A program made the position numbers and the translations under genes. Under the pieces are notes generated by a model. It was not told the origin of the DNA. It ran no database searches and worked only from the letters and a program-made list of their open reading frames with translations. Positions 5,307-23,678 of a stretch of 64,000 nt of DNA are shown here, in pieces. Source of the stretch: a virus (taxonomy: Duplodnaviria > Caudoviricetes); the IMG/VR virus record IMGVR_UViG_3300029305_005724, positions 128,001-192,000 of that record. The stretch is one strand, 5' to 3'. How positions within the stretch are numbered: the first letter of the stretch is position 1; every line of letters starts with the position of its first letter.

Positions 5307-5861
5307 ATGACAACGCGTGAAAAAGAACCCTTTAAAATTGCCGCAAGTGATTATGCCAATATGAGCTGTTGGCTAAAAATACTTGTGGATTGTATACATA
5401 AAATTGCTAGTAATAGATTCCCATATGGCTTTGTATCTATTGAGTCTTCCGAATCCGATATAGTTACAAAACATCTTTCAGACTTTACATCAAAGAAATA
5501 TGATGAATGCTTACATCATAAAATTACCATTTGGGTTGATGTCAATCATGCCAAAGAACTACAAGTCTACTTAAGGCATGCCTTAGATGAAGCTTGTAAA
5601 ACTAGCTGGCCATTTGGTATTGGGCCTGCTGATAGAGATCAAGTTGTTCTCTTTTACCATAATAAAAATATTATCACTAGTATGACAAATCCAGGAATTC
5701 ATTGCAGTGCTGCTATATCACCATTACCAAAAATAAAAAATGGGTGTGGCGAAAATGCGATGATAACAATAATTACTAAATGCGAGGTTCCTCTCGAACT
5801 TCATGAAGTTAGTTTCTTTGATAGACTTAAGAAGTTTTTTAAAAGAAAGAAAAAATCTTAA
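5307..5861 (+). CDS. Hypothetical protein with C-terminal amphipathic basic helix
   Basis: 184-aa ORF ending SFFDRLKKFFKRKKKS. Confidence 0.7.
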   Translation: MTTREKEPFKIAASDYANMSCWLKILVDCIHKIASNRFPYGFVSIESSESDIVTKHLSDFTSKKYDECLHHKITIWVDVNHAKELQVYLRHALDEACKTSWPFGIGPADRDQVVLFYHNKNIITSMTNPGIHCSAAISPLPKIKNGCGENAMITIITKCEVPLELHEVSFFDRLKKFFKRKKKS

Positions 5862-19629: not shown

Positions 19630-21117
19630 TTACGAATTTGCATTTATCAGTTCATACTCACGAATCTCCATATTATAGTCTCTTATTATCGACTCCCTAT
19701 CTCTATCAGAGAAGTATTGTTCAGCAGAGGCTTGATACGTTCCAGGTTTTCTATTATTTTTTCGTTTATTGTTTTTCTTCTTTTTGGGTTTTGGCTGTAA
19801 CTTCTTAGCTTCAGCTTCTTCTTTTAATCTTTTTTGTTCTTCTTCATACGCATCCTGATCAGGAAATCTATATGAAGATCTTGCTACAATTCTTGGGCCT
19901 TCAGGATATACTCTGGCTAAAGTATAATCTTTATTTTGGGTTTCATTATGTAGCGTTTTTATATCTTCTACCAGCTTTACTAAATATCTATATTGAGAAG
20001 AATTAAGGTCTTCCTCTCTCTTCTTAGCTAGCATTTCTGTCAAAATATGCTGTTCAGTTTTTCGATCTCCAGGCAGATTATTTTGAAATTCTTTTGTGTC
20101 TGTATGCATAAACCATCCGTTATACGATCCAAATCTTTGCAATTTCTTAATTGTAAATCTTCCACTATAAAGAGATCTATTTGCTCTTATGGCATGATTA
20201 ATAATCCTAGGTCTTAAATCAGTTTTATCAAATGTGAACCTAAAACCAATAAAATCAATAGGATTTTCATCAGTAATTTCTACAACTTCAGAAGTTTCTT
20301 TTAACCAAAGGCCAAATTCGCTTCTAAGAAGATTGTCTATATCTTTCATAAGATTTTCAAGCTTTCTCTTATTGCTGCCTAATATAATCATATCATCCAT
20401 ATATCTTATATATTTATCTACTCCATATTTAGGCATGAGGACTTCTCGTATCTTATGATCAAATGCTTGTAAATAAAAATTAGCAAACCATTGAGATGTG
20501 TAATAGCCTAATGGTAAACCTTTTCCTGTTTTACTTGGTACTGAATAAATGATTTTTCGACAAAGATCTAAAATTTCTTTATCTTTTATTCTTTGCTCTA
20601 GCAAAATCATCAATCGTTCTCGATTTATATTCTCAAAGAATTTCTTTATATCCATTCTAAGACAATATTTATATTTCTTTCTAGTAGGAATTTGCCCAGG
20701 TTTATCATTACTTGTATCTAGGCATTTTTCAATAAAATTTTTAGCATAAAAGGTTCCTCGACCTTTTATGCTGGCACAGCACCACTGGTCCATACCTTTC
20801 ATCAAAACAGGCTGAATTGCCAATATAAGAGACCAATGTATAAATTGATCTGGAAATATAGCAGGAGCCTGGATAAATCGTATCTTATTGCTTCCTTTAT
20901 CTGAACGATAACTTTCTCGAGGTTTTCGGGGTTTAAATGAGCGCTCGGCAAGAATTCTGCCAGCCTCAGCAATATAAAAATCTTTGTTCTGCATAATCAT
21001 AAAAGACATAGAACCAGGAAGGCTCTTATGCTTTTTATCACGCATAACACCTTGAAACGCTTCTAGCATTCTTGGATACGATAGCATAGTCTCGTATAGA
21101 TTTCCAACACGCTTCAC
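19630..21117 (-). CDS. DGR reverse transcriptase with C-terminal extension
   Basis: MKR..NLY start, KGRGT, CLRMDIKKFF, GLPLGYYTSQWFAN (DGR-type SQ), YIRYMDD, IDFIGF; GTG start after GAAAGGAG; adjacent TR/VR pair. Confidence 0.95.
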   Translation of the reverse strand: MKRVGNLYETMLSYPRMLEAFQGVMRDKKHKSLPGSMSFMIMQNKDFYIAEAGRILAERSFKPRKPRESYRSDKGSNKIRFIQAPAIFPDQFIHWSLILAIQPVLMKGMDQWCCASIKGRGTFYAKNFIEKCLDTSNDKPGQIPTRKKYKYCLRMDIKKFFENINRERLMILLEQRIKDKEILDLCRKIIYSVPSKTGKGLPLGYYTSQWFANFYLQAFDHKIREVLMPKYGVDKYIRYMDDMIILGSNKRKLENLMKDIDNLLRSEFGLWLKETSEVVEITDENPIDFIGFRFTFDKTDLRPRIINHAIRANRSLYSGRFTIKKLQRFGSYNGWFMHTDTKEFQNNLPGDRKTEQHILTEMLAKKREEDLNSSQYRYLVKLVEDIKTLHNETQNKDYTLARVYPEGPRIVARSSYRFPDQDAYEEEQKRLKEEAEAKKLQPKPKKKKNNKRKNNRKPGTYQASAEQYFSDRDRESIIRDYNMEIREYELINANS

Positions 21118-21472
21118 TTAAAAGAACATCTCCTTTCATAATTATTTGCTATCTCAGGATTACTCCATATACGTCAAATAAATTCGATGACTGCAACTGT
21201 ATGATTAACTTACCTTAACCCAACGCACAGCCCTAACGGGGTTTCGAATCATTTCTGATCTACTAACTCATTTCGAGACGGGCAAATTTTACTGAATTTA
21301 ATCAGCAAGGAATTTTCGGTGCTAGAAATCTATTTACTAACTTTATTATGCATACGATACTTAGGGATGAAGCTAAAGAAACCGTATATAAAGGAAGCAA
21401 TAGATTCGGCATCTACCGCAATAGTATCACTTATCCGAGATAAGTGTCTCGAACTATTGTCCTGTGCAGGGC

Positions 21473-21623
21473 TAGGCCGCAACAAGGCGCCCGACATAAT
21501 TGTCGTTGTTGTTGTTGGGATTGTTGTTGATGTTGGCGTAGAAGGGACCAGCATTCGCCAGGTTATTCCTGTAGCTACCACCGACATTGGCAACATAGCC
21601 GGAGTTGTCGTTGACGTAAAGAT
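21473..21623 (-). repeat. DGR template repeat (TR), 151 bp
   Basis: Gap-free alignment to 22008-22158; all 23 differences fall at TR adenines (42 adenines in total); rich in AAC codons. Confidence 0.95.
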
Positions 21624-21901
21624 CCAAAAATCCCTCCGAAGAATTTCCACCGAATTACCTTGGTTTTGCAATTTCAACGCCCAATTGCAAGTCAATCTCA
21701 GAAGTCGACTAATGGAAGAAGAAATTATATAGCAAAACTTATTAAAAAAGTTATTTGATGTAATTTTTAAATCCTGCTTAATAGATGTCTTTTTATATAA
21801 ATTTTCAAAATTTTTCATGGTTATGATATTTCTATTTAATGCCATATTATGCATATTATATCACCTCCCATCAATGAATAGTTGCATGATTAATAAGTTA
21901 C

Positions 21902-21966: not shown

Positions 21967-22005
21967 GTAGGGGGCCGCGGCCCCCTACGACCCTCAACTC
22001 GAGGG
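21967..22005 (-). promoter_or_regulatory. GC-rich hairpin/cruciform downstream of VR (DGR homing cis element)
   Basis: GTAGGGGGCC-GC-GGCCCCCTAC perfect inverted repeat plus CCCTC/GAGGG hairpin directly after the target stop; absent after TR. Confidence 0.75.
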
Positions 22006-22006
22006 G

Positions 22007-23458
22007 TTAGGCCGCAACAAGGCGCCCGACATAACCGTCGATGCTGTCGTAGGGATTGTAGTCGACGACGGCGCAGAAGGGACCAGCATTCGCCAGGTTA
22101 CCCCAGTAGCCACCACCGACATAGGCAACACAGCCGGAGTCGCCGCCGACGCAAAGATAATCTGGCCAACCAATTGTAGAATCAGACTGACCAACAGATG
22201 CAAAAATAGCCGCTCCCCCAAGTACAGGAGACATTTCTGTAGGATACAGAGATTCCCATACAGGCAAAGAATGACCAACAGAAGTATACGAACTTGTATC
22301 TTCACCGTCATATGCATCTTTATAAGGCGGGCAATCCTTAATCAAAATAGATGATTCAGACTCAATCTGAATGCCATCACACCAAGAATAAGTATTACCC
22401 CACATATTTTCGATACCGAAGCATTTAACTCCAGTACCCTTATTCTTACCACCAAAGAAGAGACCCTTGGTGTCCATAGTACCGGCATTAATCAATCCAG
22501 ATGTACCAGTGCCTACGCTAATATTACCATAACCAACTGCCGCCTGGCATTCACGAGTTTTGGTAACAAGCATGAGAAGACCAAGAATATAATATCTCTT
22601 ACACCAGTCTTCCATGCCATATTTAGCACCCATAGCTTTGCAATTTGTGCGATAGTTCTGATAAGTCCAATAGTTTTCACCATTACTTACACTCTTACCG
22701 CTCAAGCTACGAGCCTTATTATTTTCCGCATCGCCATACGCTTCATATGCACCGAAATACATATAATCGCGAACAGTTCCTGCAACTCCATCGCTGCCAT
22801 CCATGGTCTTAAATGCAGAAGTTACAAATCCGTCTGCAGATCTGTCATAGTTAGCAACCTGGAATGTTAGAATATTTCCAGACTTAGAATACTTATACCA
22901 AGTCTTCTTAAATTCGACCATTACATCTCCAGCAGCGCCAGAAGTAATGTCGGCATCGGCACCAGTAACTGTCTTGCTATAATTATTAGGATTAAGATAA
23001 ACAGATCTGGCACCATCTTTATATAGACAGGGCTTTACTCCCCATCCGCCGGTAATAATCTCTTCCCAGTCGCCATAGTTACATTCACCGGTTTCGAGAT
23101 TTACCGAAAGAGGATTAAGACCTACAGCATCATCGATGTATGTAACTGCAGATTCAGGATCTGTATTACTCATATCGATACTAATACCATAGGTAACCTG
23201 AGTAAGATTGACGTCGATCACTTCTGCTGCCGTAATAGTAATATTTCTAGATCCAGAAGCGGTACTAGAAATAACCCAATCGCCGGCTTCAAGCCAGAAA
23301 GTGGACGTACCATCTGCGGGAGTTCTCTGAAGAACAGTTCCGCATCCTGCGCATGTAATGGTTGCATGAGCTGCAGTAGTTACATTAACTTGCGCAATAA
23401 TCTTTTCGTCCGAGGAAGATGAACCTCCACCATAACGGGACATTAAAGCTTCACCCAT
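22007..23458 (-). CDS. DGR target protein; putative receptor-binding tail fibre with C-type-lectin (Mtd/FGE-like) fold
   Basis: YFGAYEA and FGIENMWGNTYSWCDG motifs, C-terminal VR ending GRL; start ATG 23458 after GGAGGGAGG. Confidence 0.85.
   Translation of the reverse strand: MGEALMSRYGGGSSSSDEKIIAQVNVTTAAHATITCAGCGTVLQRTPADGTSTFWLEAGDWVISSTASGSRNITITAAEVIDVNLTQVTYGISIDMSNTDPESAVTYIDDAVGLNPLSVNLETGECNYGDWEEIITGGWGVKPCLYKDGARSVYLNPNNYSKTVTGADADITSGAAGDVMVEFKKTWYKYSKSGNILTFQVANYDRSADGFVTSAFKTMDGSDGVAGTVRDYMYFGAYEAYGDAENNKARSLSGKSVSNGENYWTYQNYRTNCKAMGAKYGMEDWCKRYYILGLLMLVTKTRECQAAVGYGNISVGTGTSGLINAGTMDTKGLFFGGKNKGTGVKCFGIENMWGNTYSWCDGIQIESESSILIKDCPPYKDAYDGEDTSSYTSVGHSLPVWESLYPTEMSPVLGGAAIFASVGQSDSTIGWPDYLCVGGDSGCVAYVGGGYWGNLANAGPFCAVVDYNPYDSIDGYVGRLVAA
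22008..22158 (-). repeat. DGR variable repeat (VR) encoding the target C-terminus
   Basis: Encodes LCVGGDSGCVAYVGGGYWGNLANAGPFCAVVDYNPYDSIDGYVGRLVAA, versus TR LYVNDNSGYVANVGGSYRNNLANAGPFYANINNNPNNNNDNYVGRLVAA. Confidence 0.95.
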
Positions 23459-23570
23459 TACAGAGCACCTCCCTCCGTACAATCAATACCCTTTTAACGC
23501 TGTTAAAAAGCCCCGTGAGAAGTTTTCGAATCACTTGACATGGGGGGGGGGTGTTACGAATTTTAATCAT
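23451..23570 (-). CDS. 39-aa leader ORF containing a C10 homopolymer and overlapping the target start
   Basis: SD AAAGGAGG + ATG 23570; MIKIRNTPPPCQVIRKLLTGLFNSVKRVLIVRREVLCNG*; stop overlaps target start (ATGGGTGA); late promoter 23596-23607. Confidence 0.6.
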   Translation of the reverse strand: MIKIRNTPPPCQVIRKLLTGLFNSVKRVLIVRREVLCNG

Positions 23571-23678
23571 ATTTAAATTCCTCCTTTATTGGAATTATTA
23601 AATAGTTTTCACGTTTTTGAATTATAATTAACGCTTTTACTACCTTTAAATATGTAAATGAGGGACGGTAAATCCCTC

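Follow-up and report, generated by a model that had tools for sequence, protein, structure and literature searches.

The window analyzed here is a stretch of 64,000 nucleotides, bases 128001-192000 of the 223,865-bp IMG/VR record IMGVR_UViG_3300029305_005724 (G+C content 34.6%), which encodes subunits of a multisubunit RNA polymerase (phrog_3148) and is thereby identified as originating from a jumbo phage. On the minus strand of the window, an HNH-endonuclease-like gene is followed by a short leader open reading frame (ORF) that encompasses a run of ten cytosines (C10), by the gene for a tail protein that is the target of a diversity-generating retroelement (DGR), and by the template repeat (TR) and the reverse transcriptase (RT) of the DGR (Table 1). 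The subject of this analysis is the C10 run and the relationship between the leader that contains it and the start of the DGR target.

The run lies 84 nt upstream of the target ATG, within a separate ORF. With the tract as it stands, the leader is open up to the target start, and its stop codon overlaps that start in ATGGGTGA. When the tract was edited in silico, the removal of one cytosine (C9) reduced the leader to 12 aa, with the stop 75 nt upstream of the target ATG, and the addition of one (C11) yielded a leader of 22 aa that terminates 47 nt upstream of that ATG; in other words, a repeat inside an upstream leader ORF sets the length of the leader. The same codon counts for C9 and C11 had been given in an earlier note on this DNA, and re-derivation of the run coordinates, the 39-codon leader, its strong Shine-Dalgarno (SD) sequence and the overlap from that note showed each detail to be correct. 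The TGA in ATGGGTGA is supplied automatically by the conserved Met-Gly-Glu start of the target, so that the informative feature is the open frame rather than the overlap itself.

The same module was detected, between the HNH-like gene and the target, in two other IMG/VR contigs, L009 (185 kb) and L027 (43.9 kb), the target proteins of which are, respectively, 55% and 49% identical to that in the window. From the promoter motif to the ATGTCA past the run, the DNA of these two loci is almost identical to that of the window, including the SD, the ATG, the CGTAACA and the exact C10; past this point, identity within the leader drops to about 50-57%, with indels. The distance from leader to target is 112, 137 and 124 nt in the window, L009 and L027, respectively, with the frame relations 1, 2 and 1. 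In L009, the frame relation was changed by a 25-nt indel, and TAA took the place of TGA as the stop. At each of the three DNA loci, the C10 frame alone is open to the target start, and the leader ends on or immediately next to that start, as in translational coupling: counted from the target ATG, the first base of the leader stop is at +5 in the window (TGA in ATGGGTGA), at -2 in L009 (TAA in TAATG) and at +5 in L027, which has the same overlap as the window. Summed over the three lineages, the leader frame contains no stops after the run, compared to 6 in either alternative frame; by shuffling, the probability that the leader frame remains open is estimated at 0.09-0.14 per lineage. In silico, a change of the run by 1 nt moves the leader stop away from the target start at each of the three loci, to a position 35-99 nt upstream with C9 or C11, as expected of a contingency locus. 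The conservation of leader and tract in related phages, a check that the earlier note had proposed, is thus borne out by both relatives, in each of which the C10 frame is open. Beyond these contigs, the scan of IMG/VR with the pattern TCGTAACAC7 produced only six unrelated chance matches; a pattern scan of metagenome DNA for the leader and the pattern and protein scans of genome contigs yielded nothing, and a metagenome protein scan retrieved two loci, both lacking the module.

Additional variants of the leader were identified among metagenome proteins by a word search with the 45-aa L009 leader, followed by analysis of its clusters and a profile search against 1.8 billion representatives; this route detects open, in-frame leaders only, and openness itself is outside its reach. 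The approximately 20 distinct leaders obtained in this manner consist of 39-46 aa, all begin with M-x-K-x-[RV]-[NV]-T, and all end in the translated SD region of the target (...KRGG[VA][LI], ...RREVS[RH]NG or ...EGGARNG). The middle portions of these leaders differ, and the peptide past PPPCQ is poorly conserved, which suggests that translation of the leader is more important than the leader peptide itself. A query with the window leader extended by one codon yielded no candidates among the proteins. Three prolines are encoded by the run in P0126 (33 contigs), P0123, P0124, P0128, P0132, P0144, P0147, P0148 and P0149, and two in P0127 (otherwise identical to P0126), P0131 (from the cluster of P0124 and P0132) and P0146 (of the L027 type). 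The two-proline forms, identical or nearly so to three-proline forms over the remainder of the leader, are consistent with three independent losses of one proline, most simply through a change from C10 to C7, with the DNA run read back from the proteins. In the tightest cluster (P0126 and its neighbors), 2/3 of the variant types fall on the run, so that the run appears to be a hotspot and its length appears to be polymorphic in nature. In other variants, the run is interrupted and reads PTP (P0121, P0129), PSP (P0122, P0130, P0125) or LSQ (P0133); judging from these proteins, some lineages have locked the run by interruption.

Examination of the entire genome indicates that the run is not a product of chance. 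G/C runs of 5 are depleted (15 observed vs 49 expected) and those of 6-9 are absent (0 vs 10.4), whereas those of 10-12 number 4 vs 0.010 expected (Poisson P = 4e-10). The distribution of run lengths is bimodal, with ordinary runs purged and a few very long ones retained. Within the window, C10 is the sole G/C run of at least 6, and CCC accounts for 10% of the proline codons in the genome. Being longer than the approximately 8 G/C that slippage calls for, and over-represented given the base composition, the tract resembles simple-sequence contingency loci, and these counts, which bear out genome-wide the earlier description of the run as an extreme outlier, support its interpretation as a selected feature. 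The A/T runs in this genome are bimodal as well (A7, 4; A8, 1; A9, 8; T7, 5; T8, 8; T9, 9; T10, 2), and some of these are tails of hairpin terminators, for example, those adjoining the two polyG genes described below.

The DGR is real and active in natural populations. Every mismatch between the TR and the core of the variable repeat (VR) falls on a TR adenine, and among 11 natural proteins with 94-100% identity to the target, the differences are confined almost entirely to the VR columns (residues ~436-476). The features by which a DGR is recognized are all present, namely, the adenine-specific TR/VR differences, the RT, which matches both RVT_1 and phrog_1423, and the position of the VR at the 3' end of the target; the assignment of the tail protein as a DGR target in the earlier note is fully upheld. 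No Avd-like accessory gene was recognized. A 174-aa ORF without a family match (21330-21854, minus strand) overlaps the TR and is probably not a gene but an echo of the frame in which the VR is read.

Table 1. Features of the leader locus and its surroundings (window positions), and C runs in a related fragment (G002; positions in the named loci)
Feature	Position	Strand	Evidence and remarks
DGR reverse transcriptase	19630..21117	-	RVT_1, E = 3e-15; phrog_1423, E = 7e-78
DGR template repeat (TR)	21469..21623	-	core mismatches A-to-N only
DGR variable repeat (VR)	22004..22158	-	repeat comparison with TR
DGR target, tail protein, 483 aa	22007..23458	-	phrog_5302, E = 6e-55; VR at C-terminus
Stop/start overlap ATGGGTGA	23451..23458	-	target ATG 23458-23456, leader TGA 23453-23451; same in L027, TAATG in L009
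Leader ORF, 39 codons + TGA, MIKIRNTPPPCQ...	23451..23570	-	reaches the target start with C7, C10 or C13 only
Target's own Shine-Dalgarno, GGAGGGAGGTG	23466..23476	-	predicted pairing with CAC plus C-run; duplex -15.0 kcal/mol, unpaired probability 0.33 at C10
Predicted hairpin	23511..23545	-	last four C's of run and AUG pair with conserved CACGGGG; followed by CUUUUU (window)
C10 homopolymer (G10 on the plus strand)	23542..23551	-	read ACC CCC CCC CCA = T-P-P-P; identical C10 in L009 and L027
Shine-Dalgarno of leader, AGGAGG	23580..23585	-	9 nt 5' of leader ATG; kept in relatives
AR9-type late-promoter motif AACT-N6-TA, AACTATTTAATA	23596..23607	-	predicted transcript start ~25 nt before leader ATG
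Conserved block TAATTATAATTCAAAAAC with sigma-70-like -10 hexamer TATAAT (23626-23621)	23613..23630	-	promoter scan; kept in L009 and L027
HNH-endonuclease-like gene, 293 aa	23679..24560	-	phrog_2081, E = 2e-26; upstream of leader; syntenic in all three leader-bearing phages
G002 run	L018:1485-1590	+	C10 or C11
G002 run	L022:1425-1526	-	C10 or C11
G002 run	L013:1485-1590	+	C10 or C11

The leader is preceded by a late-promoter motif, AACTATTTAATA, that fits the consensus AACA-N6-TA/G of late promoters recognized by the non-virion RNA polymerase of phage AR9 (PMC7598289). In a loosened form (AAC[AT]N6TA, 15-45 nt upstream), this motif precedes 22.5% of the 240 long ORF starts in the genome vs 2.3% of random positions, a 10-fold enrichment, and it occupies the same place in L009 and L027. 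The late promoter proposed in the earlier note thus stands as a motif match of the AR9 type, enriched and conserved in position, but not as a mapped transcript start. No such motif was found between the C-run and the target ATG, so that the leader and the target most likely share one late mRNA.

Two RNA structures are predicted to involve the run. In the RNAalifold consensus for the three leaders, the AUG and the four C's at the end of the run pair with a conserved CA[CU]GGGG, with two inner pairs changed on both sides, and the local hairpin has a predicted energy of -10.7 (window), -17.5 (L009) and -15.3 (L027) kcal/mol. The same program also pairs CACC-C-CCC with the GGG-A-GGUG of the target SD in the three loci, with run:SD duplexes of -15.0 to -16.5 kcal/mol; in ribosome-free ensemble folds at C10, most of the SD is paired, its unpaired probability being 0.19-0.46, with 5.7-7.3 expected run:SD pairs. 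A conserved intrinsic terminator between leader and target is not in evidence: the terminator scan found nothing, and the U-run behind the hairpin is present in the window only, being absent in L009 and L027.

The other three long G/C runs of the genome are located outside the window. Two of these are situated at codons 15-19 in a pair of paralogs toward the left end of the record. In the first paralog (genome 2578-4004, plus strand; run 2618-2629), G12 is out of frame and leaves 19 aa, and G10 or G13 would yield a protein of 474-475 aa; in the second (genome 5724-4192, minus strand; run 5671-5680), G10 is in frame, giving 510 aa. The coexistence of an out-of-frame G12 and an in-frame G10 indicates that runs change length in this lineage, and, judged by the reading frames, the interpretation of the two G runs as putative on/off switches inside genes is supported. 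The N-termini of these proteins, MANAILSR and MAHGMIISR, resemble the MGEALMSR of the DGR target. The possibility that the two polyG genes (genome 2.6 and 5.7 kb) are homologs of the target was considered and rejected (BLASTP E = 0.086); searches for Pfam, PHROG and PDB matches to their products found none. The fourth run, C11 (genome 222321-222331, minus strand), is followed 2 nt downstream by a late-promoter motif, AACATTTTAATA. The operon behind this motif encodes a 219-aa membrane/coiled-coil protein, a GNAT acetyltransferase and a class-3 lipase, and this C11 may act close to the promoter as a run-length switch for what is possibly a cassette that modifies the host surface.

A related 28.6-kb fragment, G002 (IMGVR_UViG_3300035498_000911, found via L010), contains three C10 or C11 runs, located 190-380 nt upstream of genes that start with MGE..., with no ORF across them. 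In two of these, CAC and the C-run pair with GGGGAGGGAGGGUGA in predicted hairpins of -39.3 kcal/mol (z = -4.6 and -5.8), so that C-runs seem to pair recurrently with G-rich, SD-like boxes in this phage group. The arrangement in G002 may be either ancestral to the leader module or a sister of it.

With regard to the neighborhood, the HNH-like protein is 72-73% identical to its counterparts in L009 and L027 and is thus more conserved than the adjoining fiber; it includes the sequence IIMIEPMN, and may be a resident enzyme rather than the product of a mobile homing gene. A search of GenBank phages in 'distant' mode retrieved no match.

Taken together, these observations suggest that the leader run is probably a random dimmer or an on/off switch for the fiber gene; the specific proposal, a contingency switch that operates through translation of the leader and is layered on an active DGR, is to our judgment an even call. 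Under this proposal, slipped-strand changes during replication would alter the length of the C10 run, and run length would set the reading frame of the leader on the late mRNA common to leader and target. With C10 (or C7 or C13), ribosomes loaded at the leader SD would read 39 codons and stop over the target start ATGGGTGA, where they would reinitiate and keep the SD and AUG of the target unfolded. With C9 or C11, ribosomes would stop 47-75 nt upstream, and the vacated CAC and C-run would re-pair with the G-rich SD, GGAGGGAGGUG, the masking of which would lower fiber synthesis. The outcome would be a heritable and reversible minority of progeny with little fiber, on top of the DGR variation of the binding tip. 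The anatomy of the leader, run and overlap, the non-random nature of the run, the conserved frame in three genomes, the variants compatible with in-frame changes of length and the active DGR are observed; we infer the slippage by +1/-1, the coupling or unmasking effect and any change of phenotype. The idea of the earlier note that tract length tunes expression is strengthened by the selected run, the conserved C10 frame and the apparent polymorphism of run length, whereas its two layers of host-range variation are something that we, too, only infer. Somewhat more tentatively, and short of an even call, the C-run might play a dual role across a clade of jumbo phages, as an anti-SD at the RNA level that masks the ribosome-binding site of the fiber gene and, at the DNA level, as a hypermutable setter of the frame of the leader, translation of which would unmask that same site; a presumably lytic phage would then carry a stochastic heritable switch in front of a DGR-hypermutated gene, and lineages would shift between a slippery state, with pure C10 or C7, and a locked one, with an interrupted run.

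Several points weigh against the contingency switch. All three DNA loci have exactly C10, no +1 or -1 variant was seen, and the two-proline variants are known from proteins alone, with the ascertainment bias for in-frame leaders that this entails. The lineages with interrupted runs keep the leader, which implies that the homopolymer is dispensable for the basic job of the leader. The long-range helix between the C-run and the SD shows no covariation, all its pairs being invariant, and the argument for it is thermodynamic; furthermore, the fold of the whole leader is no more stable than that of shuffled sequence (z = -0.76). Ribosomes cross the C-run in every frame, so that heavy ribosome traffic on the leader, or stalling at PPP, might free the SD regardless of where translation ends. 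Finally, the target has a strong SD of its own, which the earlier note had regarded as a potential limit on any effect; this worry is softened by the predicted pairing of the C-run with that very SD.

The leading alternative is that the leader is a fixed cis-regulatory element, a constitutive coupling or SD-masking device that, for example, times or limits fiber production or senses PPP stalling and EF-P, with the pure C10 being one of several acceptable sequences and its slipperiness incidental or mildly harmful. Such a device would account for the exact C10 and the coupled frame in all three DNA loci, for the C-run:SD pairing predicted in each of them, and for the at least six natural variants in which the run is interrupted (PTP, PSP, LSQ) and the remainder of the leader is intact; the C-to-U changes in the run that can be deduced from the PSP variants would better complement GGGGAGG, and two of the G002 runs form their very stable predicted hairpins with GGGGAGGGAGGGUGA without an ORF across them. 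Nevertheless, CCUCC would pair better as an anti-SD, yet the pure run is retained base for base next to a gene that is only 49-55% identical. Moreover, the genome lacks G/C runs of 6-9 and yet has four of 10-12, two of which are classic in-gene frame switches, and length variants with two prolines recur in three sub-lineages. On balance, we consider the fixed leader possible but doubtful. The same switch could, in principle, act through transcription, if an early stop of the leader at C9 or C11 exposed a CCCC...GGGG attenuator or a Rho site, so that the mRNA would end before the target. Poly(C) is a classical activator of Rho. The conserved hairpin directly past the run, with its two compensatory pairs, and the CUUUUU behind it in the window are compatible with attenuation, for which the pil1 leader discussed below offers a precedent (PMC3894217). 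However, the U-run is missing in L009 and L027 (CUCUCUUCC and CUCUUUAC, respectively), the terminator scan found none here, the window leader at C11 still reads through the hairpin, and a response of the jumbo-phage RNA polymerase to Rho is an assumption; we therefore regard this version of the switch as improbable.

Variation might also arise at the RNA level, through transcriptional slippage or +1/-1 ribosomal frameshifting (CCC-C, tRNA-Pro, polyproline stall), resulting in a fixed ratio of long and short leaders in every infected cell, with no heritable variation. In favor of this explanation, all DNA copies have C10. The T-P-P-P encoded by the run is a stalling and shift-prone context. Nonetheless, both alternative frames end soon in non-conserved peptides, with no second product evident, and the two-proline variants along with the G12/G10 genes imply differences in length at the level of DNA, which makes recoding very improbable. 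As for an artifact, homopolymers are error-prone in sequencing, but the same C10 is present in three independent assemblies; nor can the leader be a split N-terminus of the target, given that all 28 aligned target homologs start with MGE or MGQ and neither alternative frame joins the frame of the target. Jointly, these two explanations can be practically disregarded.

The contingency switch, as proposed here, combines elements of several known systems. In classical translational coupling with stop/start overlap and SD masking, as in the trp operon and in the coat and replicase genes of RNA phages, the first ORF terminates at the start of the second or on top of it, and the leader locus has the same layout (TAATG or ATGGGTGA), with the downstream SD predicted to be paired until ribosomes arrive; in those systems, however, the arrangement is fixed, whereas here the upstream frame depends on a hypermutable run. 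The DGR shares with that of Bordetella phage BPP-1, the target of which is mtd, the TR/VR pair with adenine-specific changes, the RT and a tail protein in which the C-terminus is variable, the difference being that the present DGR resides in a jumbo phage that has an RNA polymerase of its own. To our knowledge, an expression switch in front of a DGR target has not been described so far, and our literature search retrieved none in which a slippery leader is connected with a DGR target.

Mechanistically, the pil1 locus of Streptococcus gallolyticus comes closest: there, GCAGA repeats in a leader-peptide gene control expression of the pilus by way of an intrinsic terminator, the melting of which depends on ribosomes (Danne et al. 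2014, PMC3894217). In both cases, a slippery repeat in an upstream leader sets how far ribosomes travel, and in pil1 this distance governs a downstream gene for a surface structure. Unlike pil1, which is bacterial and not viral, the locus described here involves a homopolymer, and its leader stop lies over the target start, which is suggestive of translational coupling and SD unmasking; a premature terminator that ribosomes would melt is not conserved at the three loci. The closest viral precedents are the polyG tracts of Campylobacter phages and the contingency loci of coliphages T2 and T4, both of which, judging from the published descriptions, operate by in-gene frameshifts. Campylobacter phages of the genus Fletchervirus are described as carrying hypermutable polyG tracts in genes for receptor-binding proteins (Sorensen et al. 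2021, Cell Rep 35:109214, as reported via PMC10877375). As far as that description goes, the two systems have in common long G/C homopolymers at host-recognition genes of a lytic phage (presumably lytic, in the present case) and, as proposed here, mixed progeny, and the two polyG paralogs in the present genome likewise have the run in the 5' coding region (2618-2629 and 5671-5680). The C10 locus differs in that the run, located on the C strand of a distinct leader ORF, is outside the binding-protein gene, so that translation of an intact protein would change, with no truncation; in addition, the gene is a DGR target, and the phage, a jumbo phage that has RNA polymerases of its own, is unrelated. 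For coliphages, reversible frameshift mutations at contingency loci are reported to have been demonstrated for agt of T2 and rIIA of T4 (Gomez, Barrick, Waters 2025, bioRxiv 10.1101/2025.10.21.683753); the shared principle is polymerase slippage at simple phage repeats as a form of bet-hedging, and the abstract of that study does not include a leader ORF gating another gene.

If the contingency switch is real, it has several implications. For metagenomics, consensus assemblies of such phages may conceal functionally distinct subpopulations, and short leader ORFs that bear homopolymers should not be written off as noise. The leader, of about 120 nt, would be a compact natural design for stochastic gene control that leaves the product undamaged, and phage contingency loci would extend from in-gene frameshifts to leader-gated translation. 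Host recognition in these jumbo phages would then be varied at two levels within one locus, with the DGR changing what the fiber binds and the slippery leader changing whether fiber is made, or how much.

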